DNA of 59,876 nt, counting the filler, from Porpidia crustulata (Eukaryota): NCBI GenBank assembly GCA_964255105.1. It is 4 parts of 4 records of this genome, joined end to end, with 100 filler letters (N's around TTAATTAATTAA, not from the genome) between each part and the next. Parts side by side here need not be neighbours in the genome. Positions count along the whole stretch, not along the records: positions 1 to 14,923 come from CAXUWE010000351.1; 3 more parts are not named here. The stretch is one strand, 5' to 3'. The position numbers and the translations under genes were made by a program. Below the pieces are notes generated by a model that saw only the letters and a list, made by a program, of their open reading frames with translations, made no database searches and was not told the DNA's origin. Shown one piece after another: positions 1-14,923 of this stretch (position 1 is the stretch's first letter; each line of letters begins with the position of its first letter).

Positions 1-662
1 GGATAGCTGGGGAGCGGGAGCCGGGGTTTGGATTGGAATGGGCGGGCTCTTGTTTGTATCTTTTGATTTTGGTTGCGTGAGAAGGTGATGAGATTGGAGG
101 TGTTGGTGGACTTAGTATGGCGTATATGGTTGTGCTCACAGGACCTAACGAGATAAAAGCACGAAGAGGACGTTATGGGGAAGCGCGGAATAACCATTGG
201 AGCAAAAGACAGAGCATGGAGGGGACGCAACTGTCATGGAAGTTTGAATGGGGGCGAAAGGTTGGGAAACTAAACCTAGCGGTGACGACAGATTCATGTG
301 GGATTTGATGGTGATTTCGGTCAAGGAGGTGGTGCATTGAGAATGCGTGGCCTTCATAATTTTCGGAGATTCGTGGTCGGCAGTGCAAGAGTAATCGGTA
401 TGCTCTGTTTAAGCATTGTCGATAATGTAGAGAAAGCCAGTCACAACAATGTTTGCGGGCTAGGAATTTGAATGATTTGAATTATGCACTTCATGACGCC
501 GAATCGCGCATTTATGAAATGTCTCATTATCAAATATCTGGATATTGTCGTCTTGTGTTGACCAGACCTTCAGAGCGACTTTTGTGTTCTGCCACGATCT
601 ATAATTCGGTCAGCAACCCATTGACATAGGTGCAATTGTCCAAGCAGAGTATGAGGGTGTTC

Positions 663-749
663 GGTATCAGTTCTCCAAGGCGAAATATGTGTTTCTTCAA
701 GGACTATGTCTCGGAAAGAACACAGCAAATATTTGGGTTCATCAGGTAA
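663..749 (-). ncRNA. Box C/D snoRNA, U55/SNORD55-like (LSU Cm in GGUCU-C-CAAGG) with a second guide to 5.8S (Am in GAAG-A-ACGCAGC)
   Basis: Box C TGATGA 744-739, D' CCGA 714-711, box D CTGA 670-667. D guide TTCGCCTTGGAGA (684-672) pairs with LSU UCUCCAAGGUGAA (one G-U). D' guide TTTGCTGTGTTCTT (729-716) pairs with 5.8S AAGAACGCAGCGAA (two G-U). Lies in intron 787-599. Confidence 0.85.
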
Positions 750-987
750 GGGCCAGAGAGAGAAGAGAAAAGGACAGTCTGACTCACCATGTTCGGTCTA
801 ATATTAATATGTGGTATATAAGTGCTTAACCTACTTTTTGGTCAAAGGATATTAGCTTGTATCCGAATCACAACTTCGTGTCCTGTGAGCAAAGAGAAAA
901 TAGCTAGCGCATCTAATAATCAGGCTTGGGGCCTCTCCGTCAGCGTAATGTATGTACATGAAAGGCGAAGAGAAGAGCATACCTCAT

Positions 988-1088
988 TAAATCAGAATTT
1001 TCAGTGTTTGTACGTTCACAACCAGACGATGCCCTCGTTACAAGGCGGTGTCCAGTTCAAACAGTGTGAATAGTGTTCATCATCTCAA
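988..1088 (-). ncRNA. Box C/D snoRNA guiding two neighbouring LSU uridines (yeast Um2724 and Um2729 equivalents)
   Basis: Box C ATGATGA 1083-1077, D' TTGA 1060-1057, box D CTGA 995-992. D' guide TATTCACACTG pairs with LSU CAGUGUGAAUA; D guide ACACTGAAAAT pairs with AUUUUCAGUGU. The D+5 rule gives the two known methylated U residues. Confidence 0.88.
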
Positions 1089-1535
1089 GACGGCTTGCAT
1101 GGTGGGTATTTGAAGGGGGACAGGTGGATGTAATACCTATCAGTGGTGTTGCCCAGGGTATGAATATCTGGGGGACTGTCAAAAGCGAATATTATCTAAA
1201 AAAGCATCTTTCAACCCAGTCAGCCAGTTTACCACTAGCTGTGTAATGCAGAATCAAATGCATATTCCAAAGCGTAGAGGATCAGCTGACGAGTTCTCAA
1301 CAAGCACTTCCATCCACATGGCATCGGCCGAGGTTTGTACGCCTGGCCTTGGTTGATGCCAGCGAAGGAGTGCGCAGTCTGTCCGCCCGTTCGTTCAAGA
1401 TTCTTCATGTAGGAATGGGCATTGAAAGAGGATCAGGGAAGGCTGGCAAGATTGAAGTTGTACCTAACAATGCAGTATCATATTAGCCATAGGTACTCTC
1501 GAAAGAGGGACGAACAGAGAACGTGGTGGGGGTTG

Positions 1536-1628
1536 TGTGTCAGACAAGGCTGAAACTGATAGAGACAGAATCGACATTAAATATTCGGATTGAGGAATGC
1601 CTTTCCGTGTCGTGTGGTCATCATGTAA
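1536..1628 (-). ncRNA. Box C/D snoRNA, snR41-like (18S Gm1126 equivalent)
   Basis: Box C ATGATGA 1624-1618, box D CTGA 1543-1540. A 13-nt D guide AGTTTCAGCCTTG is the exact complement of 18S CAAGGCUGAAACU. A second 11-nt complement, AGGCATTCCTC (1602-1592), to 18S GAGGAAUGCCU precedes a CCGA D' box. Confidence 0.88.
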
Positions 1629-1793
1629 AAGCGCACTTGCAATATGAAGAAGTTCTCCCGGCTCGTACCTTTTTAACCTCTCCGTTGCAACTGCCTCAGG
1701 TGAATCTAGACGGGAAACGTCAATTGTCTATAGCACAGATTTAGCTTGTGCCATCATAGCTTCATATCAATGACGCAAGAATAGCACAATCAA

Positions 1794-1878
1794 GAGATCA
1801 GAGTAATTCTAGAGTATGTTGTATCTCCTGCATGGTGCTATAGGAATTGGATTGTTCGTGAAAGAGCTCATCATCTCG
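1794..1878 (-). ncRNA. Box C/D snoRNA, U45-like (18S A equivalent to human Am159) with a second guide to LSU UUGGAUUGUUC
   Basis: Box C ATGATGA 1874-1868, box D CTGA 1801-1798, terminal stem GAGA/TCTC. D guide CTCTAGAATTAC pairs with 18S GUAAUUCUAGAG. Upstream GAACAATCCAA (1857-1847) pairs with the LSU A-loop region; its D' box is degenerate. Confidence 0.85.
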
Positions 1879-2308
1879 TAGACTACCGATCTATGCGTCA
1901 AATGCGACTTACCAGTGATATGTACTACTTGTCATGGAGTACTAATACCAGAATGCAAGTAATGAGAAGCAATTACAAAAGTGAGATTTGCGTTTCAGAT
2001 TTTGGACCTTTAGTATTGATTTAGTGTGATGCGCTAGTGATCGCCCGATAAGGCTGGAAGAACTGCGCAAGTTTGTGCAATAGACCGCGTAGCACACTGG
2101 CAGGACGACCACTTTGTCGAGAAAAATAAATTGACCTCATCCAACCTCTGAATCATTCAAGAGTGACGACGCAAATTATCTTTTGTCCGAGTAATGGGTT
2201 ATAGGACCCCCAGGCATTTGGACCCGTGCCCAACATTCAAACGCCAGGTATCGATTCCCTGCCCATTCGTCTAATCATATCCTATCTGGAGAGGCTGGCA
2301 CAGAGCTG

Positions 2309-4373
2309 CTACTCCACAAAGCCATCTCCCTCTTCTCCATCGTCCTCATCCATCTCCTCTCCCGCGCTATCCACCCCATCCTCCTTGAACACCTTGTCTA
2401 TCCCAACCTCTTTCAATCGTTCCTGCATATCTTCCCTCTTCCTCGACTGCCATCGCTCTAAGGCTGCCGCTGCGTGTACTTTGAACCCAAAAATTCTTGG
2501 CTCATATCTTCTGATGCTTTTCTCCGCTATCAATGCCGGGTAGACTTGAAATAAGATATTTTGGAAGGAGGTACCAAAGTAGGCACCGTCAATGGTAGAA
2601 TGTCGCGAAGATTTGGGATTATAGAGATCTTCGCATTTTCCGCAATAGAGTTTAACGGATTGCACATGGGGGAGGTCGGCCATGCCGGTCGGCAGGAGGG
2701 GGTGATTCTGACACATGACACGAGGGCATTTGCCAAAATCACACTTTTTGTATTTTTCGAGCTGGATAGCGTTAGTCCATCTGCCAATGGCTGAATACAA
2801 AGGCCCACCATTTTCGCTAAGCCTCTAGTGGTGGTGATGTAGCGGGCATGAACTAAGCCATAGAGATGTCGTGCAGACTTCTCAATCTGTTCGCGCATGT
2901 CATCGTCGCAGTCAAGGTCGAAGACGTCGGTAACCAGGTCAAGGGCATATTGATAGTATTGTACGTCGGTATTGAGGCCTGTTAGGTTGAAACGATCTGT
3001 GAGGTAGTCTTCATCGATTTCACAAAAGTACTCGTTGCCGCGGGATGATATGAACTATAGTAGCCATATATTAGTAATGTAAATTTTAGAATTTCCTTGA
3101 TTGGCCCAAAAGAATCTCTGCAGCAAGCTCCAAGGGAATCATGACTGAAAACGAAATGGAGTAAAATGAACTCCCAGCCAAGGGCATAAATCAAGCAGCT
3201 GTCTGGAACTCGACGACCGACTGCAGAGGTTTCCTTGGAGCTCTTACGATATCTGAATGCGGATCAATTATAGCCATGTCCTTCTTGTTTAATAGACCGC
3301 CGCGTAAGCCAGTGGACTGTTGAGTATTTGCGTTCTGTCTTGGAGATACTTCTGAAGGGTCGTCGTCCTCAAGTGTCTTAGGCGACCAGCTTGCACTCTC
3401 TCTCTCGCTTGTAGGGGCCGATGAATGGGGTGGGGGTCTTCCGAGCATTCTACTAGGTCCAGCATTTGCAAGATCCCACGCGACTTTGCTGGAGTTTGGG
3501 AAAAGGGCTGTCGGCGCTTCTGGTAGCTCGTCTTTTGACTCATGGTAGCTTCTGTGCACATTCTCTCCTTCGTCCGAGATATCTTCTCCTGGCCAACCAT
3601 TTTCGCTATTCTCATCTGCAGCTTCTTCGCCTGAATCTAGTCCGCCACCACTTGGTCTTTGGAATCCTTCAAACGCCTGGCCTGGTTCGCTAGCTTCCAC
3701 CGAAGGCGTTGAAGCTGCTCGGGGTCCATAATCCTTGGAATTGTACGGTACCGGGCTATACCCAGATCTGAGATGGAATGCATATGGAGATATATCTCTT
3801 CCAGGTCCCGGATACGGGACTTTAGCGATGAACCCATCCTCATCCCTTGGGAAGTTTACATTTAATATATCCTGACTGATCGGTCGACACCTGTCCGCAT
3901 GGCGTTCAGTGGGCGATGACAATGGAGAAGAGTCGCTACTTGGTTCTATAGACGAAAAGGGCACATCCGCACGAGAGTGACTCGGACTGAGATTCTGGCG
4001 AGGTGTGTGGGCCTGATGAATTGAGCTTGCTTCAAGCTCTCTATCCTGAACAAGCTGCGTTGTGAGATCTGGCCTACTCTCCATAGTGTCTGCTTTTCTT
4101 TTCCCAGGCATTACACTAAAATATGCGGAGGTACCAATAGAGAGAGGAAACTGAGTCCGAGCGCTCCTCAAATGGCTTGGATCAGGTACAATAAAAAGCA
4201 CAAAAACGATAGATAATGCTAACGCTGTGCCAAGAATTATGAAAAGAAGAAGATATCAAGCAGTAAACACGCAAACACAGATCTGTCTGAGAACGAAGAT
4301 GGAAGGTATGACCCACCCAGTCTCTCCAGTAACTTGTGTAGTCACTGTCTGTCTCACTGTTGAAGTCCTCCAT
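2309..4373 (-). CDS. ckb2: Casein kinase II regulatory subunit beta (CKB2 type); exons 4373-4317, 3054-2809, 2761-2309
   Basis: MEDFNSETDSDYTSYWRDW|FISSRGNEYFCEIDEDYLTDRFNLTGL...HLYGLVHARYI...|LEKY...CPRVMC...KLYCGKC zinc ribbon, IDGAYFGTSF, YEPRIFGFK. GT-AG introns of 1262 and 47 nt with branch sites. Confidence 0.96.
3191..4111 (-). CDS. 306-aa S/P/E/D-rich ORF nested in ckb2 intron 1 (nested gene or alternative coding exon)
   Basis: Stop-free frame 4201-3191 with first ATG at 4111 (MPGKRKAD...). Composition resembles a disordered protein. An in-frame GTAAGA donor at 3247 is phase-compatible with ckb2 exon 2. Confidence 0.55.
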   Translation of the reverse strand: MPGKRKADTMESRPDLTTQLVQDRELEASSIHQAHTPRQNLSPSHSRADVPFSSIEPSSDSSPLSSPTERHADRCRPISQDILNVNFPRDEDGFIAKVPYPGPGRDISPYAFHLRSGYSPVPYNSKDYGPRAASTPSVEASEPGQAFEGFQRPSGGGLDSGEEAADENSENGWPGEDISDEGENVHRSYHESKDELPEAPTALFPNSSKVAWDLANAGPSRMLGRPPPHSSAPTSERESASWSPKTLEDDDPSEVSPRQNANTQQSTGLRGGLLNKKDMAIIDPHSDIVRAPRKPLQSVVEFQTAA

Positions 4374-6342
4374 CCTTGTCTTCCACTCATCGGAGACACC
4401 GACTGCTGTCCTCCGTGCCTGAAGGCAATACTAGGGTGTTTGACTGTTTATTGTTTAGGATATCGTACTGTGGTACGTCTAGGATCCATGTTTGCCTCGG
4501 AAATATGTCGTGGCTGCGGTTTGTTGATGAGTTGCAGTTGTCTAAACCGAAGAATCTTGGTCTAGGCCGAATGAAGATAATTAAGCGAAACTGCTCTGCG
4601 AAGAGCACCCGAGCTTGCCGAGCAGTCGAGCTTTCATAACCTTCGACCAAATGGAAGATTGTTCGTCAGATCGCTACAGATCTGTTACTGCGTAGACTCA
4701 GGATCTCAGCTTCCATGTAGTATGTCTATCCCATTCCGGTATCCCACCATTCTCATCCTTGGCTCAACAGCTTGCCTCCTATCTCCCTGCTATACACTTT
4801 GATATCAATAAGATTATCCTTCGCGTTGTTCATGCATCTAGATTAAGCCCTTGACTGTATCTGAAATTTCAACATACTCGTACGCATATGTGGTCAGTAC
4901 CCTAGGAACGGACCAGAAATGATCCAACAAGTTGAATTGGAGATTTACAAGGATGATCTGAGACTAGCTAGAAGGACTTCATGCGGAAAGATAGACTTAG
5001 ACTCTTCTCTTCCGATATGGATTCTCCTCCAATTGGAAAAACCTTCGACTTTTTATTTTGGGATCTACCAGTCCAGACTTTCCTTCTAACACCAGCAATG
5101 TTGGTGCACGTATCGTTCATGCCAGGCCCCCTGCTTTCCTTGTCAGGCCTCTCTGCCCATCCTCATCCGCAACTCTACCCCTACCTTCCCATATCCTCTT
5201 CTCATCTCCTCTTCCCAACCTGCTCTCAGTCTAAGGAACCTACAAAACAATCCTTCTTCCACATTTAAGTCTTTCATAAATGGAGATTGGTAATTCGTAG
5301 CAGACTCTCAAACGGGCATGACAAACTTGGAACACGGTGAAGTCTCTATCCCTCGAGATTCTAGTTGTGAGCGGGCAGAATGGAAATGGCGCTTACGAAG
5401 GCGACACGGGGGAGATTCGCATTCTTCGAAATTCTTCGAAGCCAATTAACGGCCAAATCAAAAGGGTAGGTTTAGTTGCAGAAGGTGAATCGGGAGCAGG
5501 GGACCAAGTACTCGTGTTGATAGTGTAACATCATGGGTGACACATGAGTCAATTCAGCGAAAAGAAAACCACGAAAGATGTGGTGAAAAGAGGGAAGTAA
5601 TAATTCGACTCGCAACCTTATGAAGCTTTCGTGTCTTTTCCGTAGAAATGGCTCAAGCAATTTGTGAAGAGTACTGTAATGAAACGCAAGGTGTTCGTTG
5701 TCGTGTGAGGAGAAGGAACGGAGGCCCAGAGGGATTGAAAGGTTTTAATCATTTTGCATGAGGAGAATTTGGATGGTTGAGAGATGGAAAGGCGTTGTGT
5801 ATTTTCAATGAGCTGTAGAAATCATCGTGGACCTGTAGTGCTGAGAGCTATGACTCGTCATGATATGTGCTGCCGTGACTATAGCACTCGAATCATCCAA
5901 GTAGGGTCATTGATTCAATTCAAATATTGCTTCCCCAAATGCTCATCACAATCGGAAATTGATGTCTTTGAGAAGGAGTATGTTCAATCCATTCGATACT
6001 GATATCCAAAATTCCCTCAGGTCCAATCGGTGTACCAATAAGGAATTCCGTAAAAAGACGACTCCGGCGTCGGTGTATGCCAATAGAACCATCATAAGAC
6101 CCCCCGCCAAGCCCCACCACCATGCAGTTTTCCATCACCCTATGCATGTACACATTGGCAAAGCCCTAACGCCCCCCAAAAAATTGCAAGGCAACTATAT
6201 AAGATCTCCCAGAGCCCTTCCAAAAGATGTAAGCAGAGCACGGGTATAAACTTATCTCCTCGCCCCCAGAAAGCATTTTCATGAAATTCCAACGGTCCAG
6301 GATACCATTCGGGAGTCCCAATCTACAGCCCACTCATCGGCC

Positions 6343-7461
6343 TTATGAATCGACCATCTCGGTCGCTGCGGTTGCCAACGCGTCTAGCCCTGGGCTTTCC
6401 CCTTCGCCGTCTTCTTCGCTTCGCCCACTTGTGCTACCCATCGGCACATCTGCGAAATCGGAGCGGGACATCGAGTGTATACCATCGAGATGTCTCCCAG
6501 CTTGATAGTCAAGATCCATGGCTGTTTGATCATCTGGGGCTGCAAACGCCACCCGGGAGTCGCTGGGGAGTGTTTGGCGCCGGGAGCGAGTGCCTGTCGA
6601 AGCCGACGATGACGATTTTGACCCAACGGTGGAGGGCGCAACTTCTTCTACGCGGCCGTTCTTGTGTGTACGCTCATGCTGTTTCATGTTATCCTTGCGG
6701 GTGAAGGCTTTGTTGCAGGTGGGGCAGCGGATATTCTTCTCGCCAGTATGTTTTTTGCCATGGCGAGCGGCATGGCCGGAGGTCGTGAAAGTGTCTGGGC
6801 AGGAGAATCGCGAGGCATGAGGACACGGATACTTCTTCTTGAGGGTTTTGGCCGTCGAAGTAGTGGAGTTGGCCGGGGCCGAGGTCGAAGGGGTGACGGC
6901 TGGGGTTGTGTGAGACGAAGGCGACGAGTTGACTGCTAGAGCAGCGTTGTTATATGGAAATTGCGTCTGTAGAGGTTGGAGAGAGGAGCGGCTGAGTTCA
7001 GAGTATTCATCGTCCATCTCGTATTCGTTGGCTCGGTGGGGTGGCGCATGGTAATAGGGCTGCGCGGCGGGGTCCTGGGCTTGCGGCATCGTAGGATAAT
7101 TATGAATACCATTAGGCCGCGGGTATGTAAAGTAAGGAGTCGAAGTTTTGGAATGTTCCAAAGACTCGAAAGGATAATTTGGCGGCGTCATTGGGGATTG
7201 AGATGATTGAGCGCCCACGGAATCCGAAGATAGCGAGTTTAAGCGCACGAGCTGCGGTGTTGCGGGCGAGATTCCTGGGGATGCGGAATTCCTGGTCGAA
7301 GAGGTAGCGCAATCGTCTCTTGACATCGACGACGACTTGGAGGATGTTGGTTTCCGTGCACGATTGTCAATACGTTGGTCGGGGTTTTTGGAGGGGGACC
7401 GCTCGTCGTTGAGGAGCGACACTTTCCGCCCGGAGGAGTTTTGAGATTTTTCGCCGTACAT
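6343..7461 (-). CDS. Two-finger C2H2 zinc-finger transcription factor (Nrg1-like repressor type)
   Basis: YPCPHASRFSCPDTFTTSGHAARHGKKH-TGEKN-IRCPTCNKAFTRKDNMKQHERTH; S/P-rich N-terminus; C-terminal GLDALATAA. First ATG is 7461 (the ORF-track start at 7521 is GTG). Confidence 0.9.
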   Translation of the reverse strand: MYGEKSQNSSGRKVSLLNDERSPSKNPDQRIDNRARKPTSSKSSSMSRDDCATSSTRNSASPGISPATPQLVRLNSLSSDSVGAQSSQSPMTPPNYPFESLEHSKTSTPYFTYPRPNGIHNYPTMPQAQDPAAQPYYHAPPHRANEYEMDDEYSELSRSSLQPLQTQFPYNNAALAVNSSPSSHTTPAVTPSTSAPANSTTSTAKTLKKKYPCPHASRFSCPDTFTTSGHAARHGKKHTGEKNIRCPTCNKAFTRKDNMKQHERTHKNGRVEEVAPSTVGSKSSSSASTGTRSRRQTLPSDSRVAFAAPDDQTAMDLDYQAGRHLDGIHSMSRSDFADVPMGSTSGRSEEDGEGESPGLDALATAATEMVDS

Positions 7462-10406
7462 TTTGGAAGTGTGAAGCAGAACAGCAACAACACCTTTCTC
7501 CGGCCCGGAATCGGATCCCACCGATTGTGGACCACTTTGTAAACCACTTTTGATGGCTCAAGACGGTTCGACGTTGTCAAAACCTGACGATGCGTCTGAC
7601 GCAGTTCTGTGGACCATATGAGGGCCTGGCGAGGAATGAGAAGACTGAACAGCTTCAGTCGGGATGCCACTGACTGCAGGGTTTGGGTGAAGCCAAGTAA
7701 GACTGTAAAAGCAACAACGCTTTAATTCAGCAGACGTTGATCTGTGGTCTGCGGCTATGAGCAGCCAAAGCGCGTGGGATTGGAGGTTTTCTATCTTCAA
7801 ACCACTTTGGGGGGGTGAGGGTGGAGGATGGGGATGCGTTTATAGATAGTAATAGAGTACCTTGGGGAAGGGGGACTTTTCAAGGACTTGTGTAGAAAGA
7901 ATAGATATCTTGTTCAAGGGTCTATTCAGTCCCTGCGTAGGAAAAGGCGCATGTTATTCCTTTTCAAGGTTATTTCATTATTTACTAGTCAAGATTGTTA
8001 TTAGGTATATTTCTTATTTGCCCAGCAGTCCAAGTGCCTTAAGCCCAAAGACCCACCACCCCCCTCAAGATCTGAACAAGAGGAGCCTTTTAGGAATAGA
8101 TCCAGGGTCTGTCTGACAGGGCAACAGGATGCCTGCCAGCTGTAGCAAGTAACAAGTACAAAGCCGGGGGGGGGAATACCACTGGGGGTGGTGTTTGGGA
8201 TGTCACGATGTCTGATTGTGAACGGGTGGGCCTCCGGTGATCGACACGGTTTAGCTGAGCTGGTTGGTTGTCATATCGTTGAACTGCCTCCGTTACGTTA
8301 GCTCCGTCATTTAAGATGCAATTCTTCAATTCAAAAGATCGCATTCCTCATCCAGGGTCTTAAGGCCCTTACTAGTGGCCATATAGGCTGCTGGCGATCA
8401 AGCCCCCTCTCGGCCGCAAGAGTGTCTGGACGGTCGTTGACAAAGTCTGGACGTTATGCAGCAGTACCTAGTATCAAGGGTCCAGTACTGTACCTACCTA
8501 GTTGATTCTACTCTAGGTACTTTGTTATTCGGATCCATTATACCTACTTAATCAGATCCCTAGACAGAAGACGTTGCTTTTTCTTTTGCCCCGTTCAGTA
8601 CGTATGGACTCATGTTAAGTGACCAGTCTTACAAAGCCTTAGACTGCTATGTATGGCCACGGCGGATATCTCAGCCGTTAGAATCTGGCATCGTCATTGC
8701 CGTCATAAGGAGTGATACATCATAAACGGCTCATCCACAGATCAACGAGGGATTTGCCACCCACATAATGGTATCTTCGCACCTTCCATAGATTGGACCC
8801 TGATTGTTGCGTAGTTGTATCATAACTGATCATCGAGCCACTCAGATTTCAGGCTCACACACGGAGCTAACCCCGCGGATTACACTCAAATCCGATCTGC
8901 CACCATCTTGCTTCTAGTGTTTATGTCATAGGCGTTGGCGGGTACACCTCCGGGATTGATTGACGGACTTTCAAACCGGTCCAATGAGCATGAGCGGGAT
9001 GTAGGACGTAGTGGCGGTAGGGCCGCAGAGACTTCAAACTCCTGTTCTCGGTAGAGTATGCAGGGTCCAGTCGAACGAGATGTACCACGTGATCATAGCA
9101 GTTGAATATCATGTCACTCAGTAGAGATCTAACAGAAGCCTGGTTACTGTTACTTGAACTCCACTTCTTGTTCTTTGTTTGGATGGAGTAATCTGACATA
9201 CACTCTAAACTCACTGTAGCACAATTCGCCATGACACAACTTATCAATGGGAAGCATGTCCTCATTCGCTGATCTGCAACTCGAAGCATGTGTCTCGTTA
9301 AGGGTTGTGTACTCCCATTTTTTACGTCAAGAAAAACAGGGTGGCATACGGTAAAAGGCCCTGCATGAGAGCCCTCGACGATGTGGCAGAGGCTAGCTAA
9401 GACATCGGTCTGCTCAAGGTGGAGGTGTGTGATCGTGAAAATTGCAAAGCTTTCTACACGAAGCCCAATCGCAGCCTCTGACCATCTAAGCGATTTTTGT
9501 CAAGGGAATAGCGCAATCATGACCAGTTGAACCTTATTCTCGGTTTCCATGTTCCATGTTCATAGACCTTAAGAGGACAGCCTTCCAGGTTATGGGCCTC
9601 AAGTACTCCAATATTCCTGGGCATGAGCTCACGTACCGTATCCTTCCCCAACTACCTGTCGACGTAAGACGTTGTGGCATGTCAAGCAAAATGCTTTCTA
9701 CGAAAGCTGGATATCAGCTTTTAAAATCACATGGGAGCAGCGACTGGCGACTGACAAGAACTGTAACTGATCCGTGTTTCATGAACAGTCTGACGGATCA
9801 TTGTCAGAGGGCCGTGACTCTTGCGCTCCACCTTCACCCTGTGTGCCTTTTTAACTACCTATACAAACAAATAAGAAGCTACAGATCACGTTCATCTCTA
9901 CAACATTGACCTTTTAAAAAGAACGAAGACTGAAGACAATATCAGGCTCCGAGATATGGAGAAGCGCTTGACTCTTGATCAATTAGTCCTGAAATCATGA
10001 TTGGAGCATACGAATACTTTCGTGTCGGGCAATGGCTTGGATGGGTCTAAATTGTACCGACTTGCTGGAAGTCTCGCTTTCGTCAGATACGTCGAAAAAA
10101 TCTGAACTCAGCTTATTGATGAGACCTAAACCCAGATATGCTTCCAATGCCCGTCACTAGGTAAAAATGAACATGCGGATTGGATAACTTCCACGAAAGC
10201 TGTCTGTACTTTACTAATTGGGCAGTGTCCATTTGTTTACGTGAAGAAGATTTTTGAGATCTGATTAGATTAGGGTATGCAGCACAGGTCCCTGCGTTAA
10301 TGCTGATGCGTGCAGGAGTGGGGCAAGCTCTCTTGCAAGTAGGTGAATAAATATCAATATAGAAATTAGAAGTCAGGCAGATATCACTATTACCTACCAT
10401 TGAAAA

Positions 10407-11058
10407 ATGTTCAAAAAAGAGTCAGTAAGCATTATGATTCACCGTCTACCCGTCTAATGAGTTTGGGGGAGTAGGATCTCTCCGGGAGCAAAGTCCAAGG
10501 TCAAGTCCTCAGTCCAACGAGCCATACGGACCAAAATCGTCGAGACTTATCCTCTATTCGCTCCATATATTGATGAAATTATGCCCAAAAAGTCACAACT
10601 AGATTTGTTGAAGCTGTAGGTGTCCACCCAGTAATGTTACTATGCCATAGCAAATTGACACTTCAAGACCCGACCGAGTTTCTCTCTACGCTCTCGAGAA
10701 CAACCCTCTCTTTTGGCAACATATGGATGACCCGATCATCCCCCATCTTCGTGTCGTACACCAGTTCCCTCAATGCTTCTCAAGAATAGGAATAGATCGA
10801 GGTGCCATACGCTTCGTCCTTTCGGGCGCAACGCTTATGGCACCTGGGTTGACATCGAAGGGGGGTCGACTACCGGAGGCGGACGATGAGCTTAAGGAAG
10901 GAACCGTGGCTGTTATTGAGGCTGAGGGAAAAGAAGAAGCTTGTTTGGTAGGTCAGTTGAGGATGGGTACGGAGGAAGTCAAGGAAAAGAAAAAAGGGGT
11001 CGTGATGGACACGGGACACTACTTAGGAGACGGATTGTGGAATATAATAATTGATTGA
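10407..11058 (+). CDS. TMA20: Translation machinery-associated protein 20 (MCT-1; pre-PUA + PUA); 2 introns
   Basis: MFKKE|ISPGAKSKVKSSVQRAIR...MPKK...KL|PDRVSLY...IIPHLRVVHQFP...IDRGAIRFVLSGATLMAPGLTSKGG...HYLGDGLW. Confidence 0.93.
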
Positions 11059-11325
11059 GATACCCATGTTCATTCTTTATCGATGCTTTGATACCTAGAG
11101 AATACAAAAGCTAAGCTGGGACATCATTTGCATGCAACCTTGCCCGAAATCTTGTTGTGTAAATCTAAATATTATGCTATCTACCTATCTATATTTAATC
11201 ATCGACTAGAAGACGGCTCTATGAAACCCTCTGGGGAAAGTTCGATTGGGAGCCCGGCAGGTAGCGCGACAGGGATATCATAATTCAAGTCAAAATCGAT
11301 GCCTTTCTACATTCCCGCGTGAGCT

Positions 11326-14300
11326 ATGTACTGGCCGTTGGGCGCTCCGCGAGTTTATGCTGCTACACGACCTCGGCCAAATGCGTCTCAGACTGATAAA
11401 TCGAGCAACAGTGAAGAAGAGGCGGAAGAGAAAGCTGACAAGGTCCTCTTGGGTCTTCGAGTTTCGCGCAGCGGTCACCTATGCGCAACCGTTACTGCAA
11501 AAACGCTGAGCATCTGGCAAACATCTGTAAGTCTTAGATAGTACAGCATTGACTGGCTCTGACTGATTCGTAGCCTATAGTTGTCCTTGCGTATGTCACA
11601 CGCTCATCACAATCCTTGATCAAATATGGCGGCAATGTCTCCGTCCTATTACGTCCAGATGCCACCATTGCAGCTGTACAGACCTCACTAGGCTTTTTAG
11701 TCACGTACTCTGTTACGCCGGAACCTAATGCTCGAGTCTATCAGCAAGTTCATCCACCTGGGCATGCTCGCAGGCAAAGCAATACCGATCGTCTGGCCAG
11801 TAAAGTTGATCCATCAGGGCTTCAGGAAGTCAACCTTCGATTTCGCATGGTCATCAAGGTTGATGCAGGAATTGGAAAAGTGCTGGCTCTCGATGACGAG
11901 TTGGTGGTAGCCACTCTTAAGCCTGCAGCCGTGCAGTGCATTCGATGGACACCAGATAGTACGGGGAGTCAGACAAGCACAGAATTACTGAGTCGGATGG
12001 CATGGATTCAGAGAAAGGCAAACGTCGTTGACATGGTGTATGATAGAGCCATGAGTCTCACCATCTGGACTACCAACGATGGCAGGGCGTACGCTGTACA
12101 ACGCGTGTCCGGGCTGCCGAAAGAACCTAGCACGCCGAGGAGGTTGTTTCGTGGTTACGGCTTCCACATACCGGAGCGCCAGGAAGACTGGGCCACGCGA
12201 GCCGCAATAAATGCCAGATTCTCATTACTGGCTATAGCATGTACAAGTAGCGAAATTTGGGTCTATACCGCGCGAGACTATGTGGGGAGCATACCGCTTT
12301 CACATAAACTTCAATCACCAGCCTCACAAACCGCAACTGGTCTGATCACTTCACTGAGCTACTCACCTGATGGCTACTGTCTCTTCGCTGGATATGAGAG
12401 GGGCTGGGCTCTGTGGAGTGTCTACGGAAAGCCGGGGGCAAGTAGCTTTGCGGCAGACCGTCAAGTCTCTGCAAGCAACGAGGAGATCTGGTTGAGCAAT
12501 GTCTATGAAGGAGTTTGGCTCAATGCTGGATTGAACATACTCTTACTAGGTCAGAACGATGATCGTTTATGGCTGTTGGACATGGCGAAATCTGCAGTCA
12601 CCGGATGTTTCTCGGCTGCGAATGTATCTCGTACGATGTTGCTAACCAATACAAGTATCATGGTCTATCGCGGTTATGATCTGCCCGTGCTCGAGACGAT
12701 TTCGGCAGACGCATCTCTCTGGCATCACGTACCAATTTCACCTGCATATTTAGAAAACCAACGTCCTATCCGGAGTGCTGTGATCTCCCCAGATGGAAGG
12801 TATGTGGCAGTCGCTGGACGGCGAGGGCTGGCCCACCATAGCGTTACTAGTGGGCGCTGGAAAACATTCCGCGACGCAGAGGCCGAAAATGCCTTCGTTG
12901 TTCGAGGCGGCATGTGCTGGTATCAGCATATTCTAATTGCCGCAGTAGAAACAGATGGTTCTCACGAGGTAGGTCGTCTCCTGTCATGAGCCTATATATT
13001 GGCTGATGAAAGTAGCTTCGACTCTACTCACGTGAGCTTGGTTTGGATGATTCCTCTCTCGTCTACACTGAGCTGCTGCCTGCACCTGTTGTAGTGATTT
13101 CACTCACAGGGCAAGATTCGCTCCTGGTTTATACATATGAGAATATTCTCTACCACTACGTGATCAATGCGGCGAGCGCTGCTGTGACGCTTGTTCAGGT
13201 TGGCCAGATCGCACTCCATGGTATTGTGCGAGCACCTGCTCGGGTCAGAGCTGTGGGTTGGATCTTGCCTGACCATCAATCACGTAAGTTGAGCAAATCG
13301 TGCATGTATACTTTAGCTGACCAATAAAGGTGATGGCGATCCTTCACAGGATGTCAAGTACGCGTCAGTAATCTTCCTCGTAGACGCGAAGCTTGTACTT
13401 TTACAGTCTTCCACCAACGTAGACGGGGGCTTAAAGTATGACATGCGGGTGATTGCGAATAACGTTGAATATTTTGATCTCATGCGAGATCAGATACCTA
13501 CGGCAGGCACTCCAGATGGCAGACAATCAGAATCGCCTGGCCTTGAGGCCCCCGAGGAAGGATTTCACAATGACCGAGGATTAAGAGATTCGCTATGGTT
13601 TTTTGATGGTATCAACGTTCAGTGTTGGATGGACGTTGAGGAACTTGTACAATCAGCTTCAACGGAGAATGACCGTGACCTACCACAGCCTGTGTCCATA
13701 CATACCGATTTCTATCCATCGTCTATAATACTTGCCAAAGGGATTCTATTGGGTATAGATGCAGATCTTGTGCAACGAAGAGATATCCAGTTTGCATTTT
13801 TTAAATCCGCCGTTAGGGTACGAATAAATACCGTGCATTGCCTGAGAAAATGCTAATTTATAAAAGACCCAGCTTTTTCTACCCCAATTCATTCGTCGCC
13901 AGCTCTCTCTCTTCGATTCCGCAGCGGCATCGAATCTTGCGCATCGATACCAGCAACTCCCTTATTTCTCCCACGCCCTCGAAATTCTTCTACACACAGT
14001 CCTTGATGATGAAGTCGACACGTCACCCTCGCCCGAAGACGCGCTATTACCCTCGGTCCTCTCCTTCTTGTCTTCTTTCCCAGATTACCTCGACATTCTC
14101 GTCCAGTGCACTCGAAAGACCGAAGTCCGCTCATGGCGCACTTTATTCGCATATCTCCCTCCACCTCAAGAGCTATTTGAAGCATCTCTACAGCAAGGCC
14201 GACTCAAAACCGCAGGCGGGTACTTGCTCGTCCTCCACACCTTCGAGGAACTCGAAACCAGCTCAGAGCAATGCGTTCGCCTACTACGCAGGGCCAAGGA

Positions 14301-14622
14301 AGCCGCAGACTGGGACCTCTGCAAGGAACTGGCTCGCTTCCTGATGGCGCTGGACGAGTCCGGAGATACGTTACGGCAGGCGTTACAGAGAATCGACATT
14401 GGGACCTCGTCCGGCGAAAGCAACACAAGTGAACACGCTGGCGATCACGTCCGCCTGAAGACCCCGCGCCCGCACGAGAGAGCCAGGCAACGAGGTATCA
14501 ACGGGCGAACCGCGCATTCGCGCAGTCCCGCCAGCAGCGGCAGGGCGAGTCCGACGAGCGCGACGACGATTTCCGAAGAGCCTCCGGGGTCGGATGATTA
14601 TTTCTCGCCGCGTAGCGAATGA
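11326..14622 (+). CDS. RIC1: RIC1, Ypt6/Rab6 GEF complex subunit (WD40-like + RIC1 domain); 4 introns
   Basis: N-terminal MYWPLGAP; ISPDGRYVAVAGRRGLAHHS..SGRWK; C-terminal DILVQCTRKTEVRSWRTLF...WDLCKELARFL. Exons are joined by GT-AG introns. Confidence 0.93.
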
Positions 14623-14923
14623 GAGTTTGTATCGGTTGAGTATCCAAATATCGATCAAGCTTCACCCGACGGACCCAAAAAAAATCCTTGTTTTGTGTAA
14701 TATTCCTAGAACCTTTTTTCCTAGCTTGGCGTTTAGATTCTCGTTTGTGCGGGAGGCATTGAGGCATTTGATATGCATCTTTTAGGGGGCTAGAAGAATA
14801 CAGTATACCTCCTTTCCATCCCGCTCTTGACTCCCCAGCAAAAACCGAGTTCGATGCCGCCGTATCCATTTTCCCTCACCCGGATATTTGTCATCGAGTC
14901 CCACACACCGCACGCCTTTCCCC

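Follow-up and report, generated by a model that had tools for sequence, protein, structure and literature searches.

A conserved open reading frame inside intron 1 of a lichen-fungus CK2 beta gene: a candidate alternative first exon

Introduction

At the brlA locus of Aspergillus nidulans, the alpha start lies within the beta intron, the extra N-terminal piece is about 23 amino acids (aa) long, and the inner transcript needs no separate splice. Two transcripts arise from two start regions at this one locus, encoding proteins that differ only N-terminally and share the downstream exon (PMC7555563). It is the nearest known arrangement to the subject of this report, the gene for the regulatory (beta) subunit of protein kinase CK2 in Porpidia crustulata. 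The gene was studied in a stretch of 59,876 nucleotides (nt) from assembly GCA_964255105.1, hereafter the window, which joins parts of four records end to end (positions 1 to 14,923 come from CAXUWE010000351.1). Intron 1 of this Lecanoromycete-type CK2 beta gene very probably holds a real, lineage-restricted protein-coding unit that starts at an ATG at position 4111. The arrangement proposed here from the sequence would resemble brlA in having one fungal locus, two starts and a shared downstream exon; unlike in brlA, the inner unit of CK2 beta would bring in 288 aa in place of 19 aa and would require a 5' splice site of its own.

Animal nested genes are mostly opposite-strand or young duplicates. 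Host and nested gene pairs in Drosophila and mammals have a complete open reading frame (ORF) lying wholly within an intron of another gene (PMC3814207, PMC5174743, PMC11694760). Unlike these pairs, whose introns span many kilobases, the fungal host gene is compact, with another intron of only 47 nt, and the ORF described here is on the same strand, takes up 84% of its intron and has no relative elsewhere. In a literature search on genes nested in introns, the works listed concerned animals and protists only.

Lineage-specific N-terminal extensions are tolerated in the CK2 beta of plants and budding yeast. Those extensions precede the conserved N-terminal helix and are encoded by normal first exons, whereas the fusion considered here for the window would replace the conserved first 19 residues. 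In a literature search in which subscription journals were thinly covered, no such CK2 beta locus, either with a nested gene or with an alternative first exon in fungi, was found in print among the papers listed, as judged from titles and abstracts. CK2 beta is among the most conserved eukaryotic regulatory subunits, and the protein encoded by exons 1 and 2 is 100% identical across the loci compared in this study; kilobase introns, in turn, are rare in fungal genes. The locus would thus be one of two things: an uncommon case, for a compact fungal genome, of a gene nested on the strand of its host, or a CK2 beta isoform not yet described, whose N-terminal arm is large and disordered.

Results and Discussion

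A probable coding unit in intron 1

Intron 1 carries on the gene strand a stop-free frame of 354 codons, a length that mononucleotide shuffles of the intron did not approach; the longest open frame averaged 100 codons in 2000 shuffles and reached 211 at most. An earlier sequence-only reading, in which a long same-strand frame had been pointed out in this intron, is borne out in that the frame exceeds chance expectation, and the coordinates it gave for intron 1, the exon 2 acceptor at 3055, the ATG at 4111, a GTAAGA at 3247 and a CAG at 4151 all hold on re-reading (Table 1). The G+C content is 0.49-0.54 within the ORF, protein P0001, compared with 0.40-0.41 at the ends of intron 1, and the 5' intron segment at 4112-4316 is pyrimidine-rich on the gene strand. 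The Logan contig of the sole run holding this DNA (X1, a DNA contig) is identical to the window over positions 1800-5200, without joints; as this contig is probably the window's own source, its agreement excludes no more than a local slip in assembly. No RNA run was listed for positions 2300-4700 of the window. Neither direct nor inverted repeats were detected in 2900-4600, and there is thus no sign of a mobile element in that interval. Paralogues of the ORF were absent within the window, and the single Rfam match (E 0.58, 13 bits against a gathering score of 70) was taken as chance.

The relatives of P0001 were collected through protein searches covering lengths of 168-2000 aa. The ORF family comprises 11 clusters at 90% identity, including the window's own: nine other clusters are 36-55% identical to P0001, and one further, longer cluster was also found. 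These family proteins are stop-to-stop style calls, and the window's own entry, P0002, begins at GTG. A profile search of 1.84 billion cluster representatives recovered this family alone, in five clusters and a 43-aa fragment, and a scan of JGI/NCBI metagenome contigs yielded 11 loci that carry it (L001-L011). The order exon 1, ORF, exon 2 was observed in all 10 of the metagenome loci that reach exon 2, which correspond to seven distinct sequences (L010 stops short of that exon). At these 10 loci the exon 2 query, made up of 82 exon residues and one intron codon, is identical at 83/83 aa and the ORF is only ~41% identical. Additionally, the exon 1 protein is identical at 19/19 aa in L001-L011, with 52-53 of 57 nt identical and all differences synonymous. 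A downstream gene, located at about 650-1900 in the window, is common to the loci with ~72% nt identity over ~1250 nt, and on this ground the loci are regarded as orthologous. Intron 1 measures 1370-1394 nt in the metagenome loci.

Searches beyond this group returned matches that were taken as chance, namely two bacterial stretches in a scan of prokaryote genomes with the ORF (one of 59 aa at 29% identity, the other of 37 aa at 49%) and, likewise, the match at locus L012. The ORF appears to be restricted to one lichen-fungus clade, and no relative was found outside it in the searches described above. The closest named relatives by exon 2, among the matches listed, are Xanthocarpia, Hypocenomyce, Pseudevernia, Umbilicaria, Lasallia, Teloschistes and others, all lichen-forming Lecanoromycetes; the best 120 of 588 matches of the exon 2 search were examined, and 119 of them were placed.

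Several lines of evidence argue that the frame has been maintained as protein-coding sequence. The Met of the MP.KRK start is found in 10 of the 11 aligned rows, and conservation begins at that residue. Each pair of ORFs is separated by 5-9 gap runs, every one of which consists of whole codons; length differences between the non-coding intron segments, at 204, 205, 213 and 214 nt, are not multiples of three. When the L003 ORF was allowed to evolve neutrally to the divergence actually observed, 29% of sites, none of 5000 replicates stayed open. Synonymous divergence (dS) in exon 2 is 0.53-0.65, and the ORF, its ATG and the whole-codon pattern of insertions and deletions are kept across lineages with dS from 0.6 to more than 1. 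The ratio of nonsynonymous to synonymous divergence (dN/dS), estimated by NG86 with bootstrap limits, is 0.52 (0.39-0.66) for the ORFs of L001 and L003, 0.39 for the window and L003, and 0.26 for the window and L001. Constraint is strongest in the block of residues 44-137, with a dN/dS of 0.18-0.21 (bootstrap 95% limits 0.07-0.38); past residue 137 the ratio is 0.92 (0.61-1.54) between L001 and L003 and 0.33-0.42 against the window. Judged by these comparisons, the ORF is coding sequence, with one well-constrained block followed by a long, loosely constrained remainder containing small conserved islands. The earlier suggestion of a genuine frame stands up in this comparison of relatives, as the frame is kept in orthologous intron 1 and a 16-nt deletion haplotype, treated below, is the sole exception.

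The predicted product

Ser makes up 14% of P0001, Pro 11%, and Asp and Glu together 15%, and the protein is predicted to be essentially disordered; AlphaFold2, run on an 11-row alignment, returned a mean pLDDT of 45.8 and a pTM of 0.14, with a single helix at residues 67-83. Pfam and NCBIfam gave no matches to P0001, ESM Atlas gave no usable match, and a profile search of the PDB returned only Spc24 (E 0.17-0.38), which was taken as chance. The conserved motifs of block 44-137 are SH..PD, SSSP.ERH, ISQDL, FPRDEDGFIA, PGRDISPY and SPVPYNS.DYGPRAASTPS, and the block also contains the sole predicted helix and all but one of the five conserved S/T-P sites. Beyond it lie a loosely constrained acidic middle and then small conserved islands (W-D..GPRRMLGRRPPP and LRGGLL). 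The S/T-P sites S66, S108, S119, T135 and S243 are kept in 9-10 of 10 relatives and would point to proline-directed kinases.

The basic PGKRK patch noted earlier belongs to the start of the ORF, MPGKRK, and in the family this start is conserved as MP(R/G/C/N)KRK, which we take to resemble a nuclear localisation signal. The acidic motifs, on the other hand, do not sustain the earlier idea of a CK2 substrate. The four motifs named in its favor, SGEE, SKDE, SERE and TLED, do exist and are kept in 6, 1, 0 and 0 of 10 relatives, respectively, and the motif class as a whole is not above chance: P0001 has 10 S/T-x-x-D/E sites, whereas 2000 shuffles have 8.3 +/- 2.4 and 29% of them reach 10. Conservation among relatives is limited to the sites at S66 (9/10) and S160 (6/10), the former having Pro as its next residue. 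A binding test of ORF residues 40-140 with CK2 beta gave scores of 0.00 and 0.00 with controls not run, and is evidence neither way.

Alternative first exon or nested gene

Amongst the explanations considered for this unit, we lean towards an alternative first exon of CK2 beta that would give a 520-aa isoform, a reading which we prefer to that of a nested gene and hold tentatively, well short of confidence. The transcript would begin within the conserved 205-nt segment 4316-4112, or would come from an upstream promoter and retain that segment, and splicing would join a weak donor in phase 0, close to where the ORF ends, to the usual acceptor of exon 2 (position 3055). In this genome the donor would be the GTAAGA at 3247, and in most relatives ACG/GTTGGT. 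In the resulting protein, a 288-aa disordered module would take the place of the 19 N-terminal residues and be tethered to the CK2 beta core starting at Pfam position 6, where it may serve the CK2 holoenzyme as an arm for targeting or regulation. An internal start of transcription, splicing at this donor, the fused protein and a function for it are all what we infer from the features that follow.

The first of these features is the end of the frame. Counted by hand in the 11 lineages, the stop lies 2, 2, 11, 15, 19, 22, 26, 31, 51, 51 and 83 codons after the last conserved Thr (L-x-T), with a mean distance of 28 codons against about 21 expected in random sequence. This random-looking scatter implies that three lineages read on into intron-like sequence; the frames of P0004, P0011 and P0012 continue into T-rich, Phe/Leu/Cys-rich sequence, and that of P0012 runs past the acceptor and enters exon 2 out of frame. 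Near the point where conservation ends, a GT in phase 0, with G at +5, is present in each lineage. The residues T-V-G are found there in 9 of the 11 lineages, and L001 and L003 both have ACG/GTTGGT at the conserved Thr. The lineages lacking T-V-G are the window (T-A-A-stop) and P0003 (T-V-D), which both have V-R-A ~15 codons upstream; this 'VRA' is common to these two only, and in the window it is the GTAAGA site. The phase of this site had been read correctly at the outset, since GTAAGA at 3247 begins codon 289 and the exon 2 acceptor is likewise phase 0. The intron removed by the candidate splice would be 193 nt in the window, 187 nt in L003, 188 nt in L001 and 179 nt in P0012 (hand counts).

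The surrounding intron sequence is consistent with the same reading. The distance from the ORF stop to the exon 2 acceptor is only 118-140 nt, which leaves little room for a separate 3' end. The 5' segment is kept at a length of 204-214 nt and is ~60% identical to relatives over its full length, compared with 29-38% for the 3' intron segment; the 300 nt ahead of exon 1 are only 0-3% identical and unalignable with the window. The conserved 5' segment fits a promoter or leader at that place.

A number of observations weigh against an alternative first exon, and some against the coding status of the frame. No protein joining the ORF family to CK2 beta was found in the P0001 searches or amongst the best 120 of 588 exon 2 matches, and the same protein collection does contain transcript-derived canonical CK2 beta, such as P0039. 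The donor position differs between the window and most relatives, with no GT at the window's site in lineages other than P0003; both candidate donors deviate from the usual fungal 5' splice consensus GTRNGT, and by our estimate ~0.5 such phase-0 sites are expected by chance per 40-codon tail, so that their occurrence does not exceed chance. In canonical pre-mRNA, a donor active only 193 nt from the acceptor would be expected to rival that of exon 1, which lies 1262 nt away, and the fusion would drop the two invariant Trp residues of exon 1, W16 and W19, which are within Pfam positions 1-5. With regard to coding status, the 30 variable ORF sites among L003-L011 split 11/10/9 over codon positions 1/2/3 (hand count), so that these close sequences have no third-position excess. 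Variable sites among them number 30/1062 in the ORF, 9/214 in the 5' segment, 7/118 in the 3' segment and 0/117 in the exon parts, and the variability of the ORF and of the flanking intron differs only about two-fold. In the tail after LRGGLL, dN is about equal to dS between L001 and L003, which means that conservation of the tail may be plain relatedness. Lastly, a deletion of 16 nt is common to L010 and L011, which come from two different assemblies; the frame is lost after about codon 135, just behind the constrained block, and no fusion could be made from that haplotype. The deletion, seen in the stretches L010:4001-4596 and L011:4001-4902, removes the ...ASTPSE.. codons and yields a natural truncation allele in which only the constrained block is kept.

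These observations lend themselves in part to an independent nested gene, which we regard as a serious competitor, though a somewhat less probable one. The ORF would have its own promoter in intron 1, run from the ATG at 4111 to the stop at 3191 and give a 306-aa protein never joined to CK2 beta, and it would stay in the intron only since moving out is hard. A gene of this kind would account for the conserved ATG, for a complete ORF that stops short of exon 2 in 10 of 11 lineages, and for constraint lying in the N-terminal block, the part that survives in the L010/L011 frameshift haplotype. In its favor, too, the window and P0009 stop two codons past the conserved ...L/F-x-T motif; against it, the stop positions taken together scatter as in random sequence, by up to 83 codons and into exon 2. 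The absence of a fused protein from the searches, the invariance of the N-terminal Trp residues of canonical CK2 beta, and candidate donors that are off-consensus, not conserved in position and, at 193 nt, expected to compete with the exon 1 donor all speak for the nested gene as well, and P0004 is recorded at NCBI as a stand-alone protein. Against it, such a gene would have just 118-140 nt for its 3' untranslated region (UTR) and poly(A) site before the host acceptor, and in a run-on transcript the 3' UTR would be long and interrupted by an intron, as it would span exons 2 and 3 together with intron 2. To our knowledge, same-strand nested genes within fungal introns are rare.

It is improbable that the frame is open for a reason other than protein, as a DNA or RNA element of the host gene (an enhancer or splicing control) or as a recently dead, unexpressed gene. 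The even split over codon positions among L003-L011, the ratio of 0.92 past residue 137 between L001 and L003, the frameshift haplotype and a product predicted to be disordered and of no known family could be read in this way; they are opposed by the frame, ATG and whole-codon indels kept at dS from 0.6 to more than 1, by the dN/dS of about 0.2 in the N-terminal block, and by an Rfam result no better than E 0.58 in an interval free of repeats. A cassette exon at 4150-3248 (903 nt) between exons 1 and 2, as had been proposed, or full or partial retention of the intron from the exon 1 ATG, is hardly credible and the cassette is rejected, even with the window's CAG at 4151 in phase, the exon 1 frame open into the ORF in L003/L004 and a Coniosporium model (P0086) that reads exon 1, 265 aa and exon 2 in one frame, as AAG replaces CAG in L001 and L003-L011, in-frame stops precede the ATG (TGA 8 codons before it in L005-L011 and a stop 17 codons before it in L001), the window's own exon 1 frame ends at a stop at 4182, the Met is conserved exactly where conservation begins, and the P0086 insert is without similarity to the ORF family.

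Unrelated segments before exon 2 in other lichen lineages

In at least 14 other clusters, an unrelated conserved ORF of ~121 aa, termed family 2, is located directly upstream of exon 2, in frame and with no stop between (P0014, P0015, P0020, P0022, P0023, P0025, P0026, P0027, P0029, P0030, P0036, P0037, P0038 and P0044). Exon 2 of these clusters is 99-100% identical to that of the window. The family 2 sequence runs MDY...EAEYLADMTRKVDWSDH...hydrophobic run...HCSQFCMQ and passes straight into FISSRGNEYF, and its members align without gaps at 39-100% identity (median 55%). Family 2 was not found by tblastn in the window or in the metagenome loci, and it has no similarity to the window ORF. It is known from proteins alone, through an exon 2 protein search able to find in-frame cases only, and looks like an unspliced alternative N-terminus of CK2 beta. 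As with the window ORF, family 2 is a lineage-restricted coding stretch just upstream of an identical exon 2 of the same gene; unlike it, family 2 is ~121 aa rather than ~300 aa long, has a hydrophobic stretch, and is contiguous with exon 2 with no splice needed.

Long segments before exon 2 were also found in gene models from Umbilicaria vellea (P0058, 652 aa), Circinaria calcarea (P0066, 396 aa) and Coniosporium (P0086, 515 aa), and in a Bacidia protein (P0112, 391 aa) the extra segment precedes exon 1. P0058, P0066 and P0086, which are predicted models rather than proof of expression, were tried as members of the ORF family and rejected, with an hhalign probability of at most 0.7% and only the CK_II_beta domain found in them. 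The extra segment of P0112 is likewise dissimilar to the ORF family and lacks a Pfam domain. Amongst the matches listed, near-identical CK2 beta genes have models of 241, 251, 283, 396 and 652 aa; predictors are evidently inconsistent at this locus, and annotations of CK2 beta in lichen genomes need care.

Family 2 and the long gene models together raise the prior that intron 1 hosts alternative first exons, and finding an unrelated in-frame ORF ahead of this exon elsewhere among lichen lineages suggests that the pattern has arisen repeatedly in evolution. A broader view, which we put forward as speculative and rather doubtful, is that CK2 beta intron 1 in lichen-forming Lecanoromycetes serves as a nursery of lineage-specific alternative N-terminal exons. 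The clade of the window would then have a ~300-aa disordered module, with S/T-P sites and a start resembling a nuclear localisation signal, spliced to exon 2, and other clades the 121-aa segment read straight into exon 2 or further unrelated ones, as in the models from Umbilicaria, Circinaria and Coniosporium. CK2 is usually regarded as constitutive; if this view were true, the kinase would gain clade-specific targeting or regulatory arms with fast evolutionary turnover.

Host gene structure and neighboring sequence

The host gene is a CK2 regulatory subunit, with a profile match to Pfam CK_II_beta (PF01214) over its full length. Exon 2 matches profile positions 6-88 (88 bits, E 8e-25) and exon 3 positions 90-182 (125 bits, E 4e-36), at a cut-off of 27 bits; exon 1 is too short for scoring but is the same as the N-terminus of 48 of the 119 placed relatives. 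In alignment with the human CK2 beta chain 1qf8_A, exon 2 begins at residue 13. The cysteines of the CPRV.C ... C.KC pattern of CK2 beta bind zinc, and this four-cysteine motif is present in the exon 3 translation as CPRVMC and LYCGKCEDLY, with the Cys residues invariant in the alignment. Canonical CK2 beta is 251 aa long, the same length as the named Xanthocarpia protein P0028. The canonical join of ...WRDW to FISS occurs in 48 of the 119 placed relatives' proteins from the exon 2 search, among the matches listed; P0039, a canonical-join protein of 261 aa, comes from contigs of at most 1246 nt, which is transcript-sized. Intron 2 of the host gene, the only other intron checked, falls within the range of 45-80 nt given in the earlier reading for the other introns here. 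At the branch-site position of intron 1, relatives have CGCTAAC or CGCTGAT. The coordinates of all features are given in Table 1.

Table 1. Coordinates of the CK2 beta gene and of the features of its intron 1 in the window
Feature	Position	Strand	Details
CK2 beta exon 1	4317..4373	minus	19 codons, MEDFNSETDSDYTSYWRDW; followed by donor GTGGGT at 4316
Intron 1	3055..4316	minus	1262 nt, GTGGGT...TACTAAT...TATAG
5' intron segment, candidate internal promoter or 5' UTR (inferred)	4112..4316	minus	stretch from donor to ATG
Stop-free frame	3191..4255	minus	354 codons, 84% of intron 1
CAG, earlier-proposed cassette acceptor	4151..4153	minus	in-frame codon; rejected as acceptor
ORF P0001	3191..4111	minus	306 codons plus stop, opens MPGKRK; first in-frame ATG at 4111
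Most constrained block, residues 44-137	3701..3982	minus	by dN/dS and invariant alignment columns
Candidate phase-0 5' splice site GTAAGA	3242..3247	minus	after codon 288; putative
Branch-site-like TACTAAT	3070..3076	minus	16 nt 5' of acceptor TATAG (3055-3059)
CK2 beta exon 2	2809..3054	minus	82 codons, opens FISSRGNEYF
Intron 2	2762..2808	minus	47 nt, GTGGGC...CCAG, CTAAC inside
CK2 beta exon 3	2309..2761	minus	150 codons plus stop

Upstream of exon 1, the ~1.9 kb at 4431-6345 of the window contain no open frame longer than 111 codons and are unalignable with relatives. The next long frame, of 404 codons, is at 6346-7557 (minus strand); nothing equivalent to it is present in the loci over 3.7 kb of upstream flank.

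Some lineages differ in the 5' intron segment in ways that affect reading frames. In L003:3788-5059 and in L004, which has the same sequence, a 1-nt difference in this segment aligns the exon 1 frame with the ORF, and the combined open frame is 424 codons long from the first intron base; L005-L011 do not share it. At ~20 nt ahead of the ORF ATG, L005-L011 carry an upstream ATG that is short and out of frame (ATGGACCTCGCC...); it overlaps the ORF start and is absent from L003 (GTGGAC), L001 and the window.

Intron 2 also varies in this respect. It has no in-frame stop in P0032 and P0024, which represent L005- and L003-type lineages, and stop-to-stop calls read through it as ...AKMVGSIEVPATTQHRMANAVQ followed by LEKYKK...; a stop-free intron 2 in these lineages is a trap for gene prediction.

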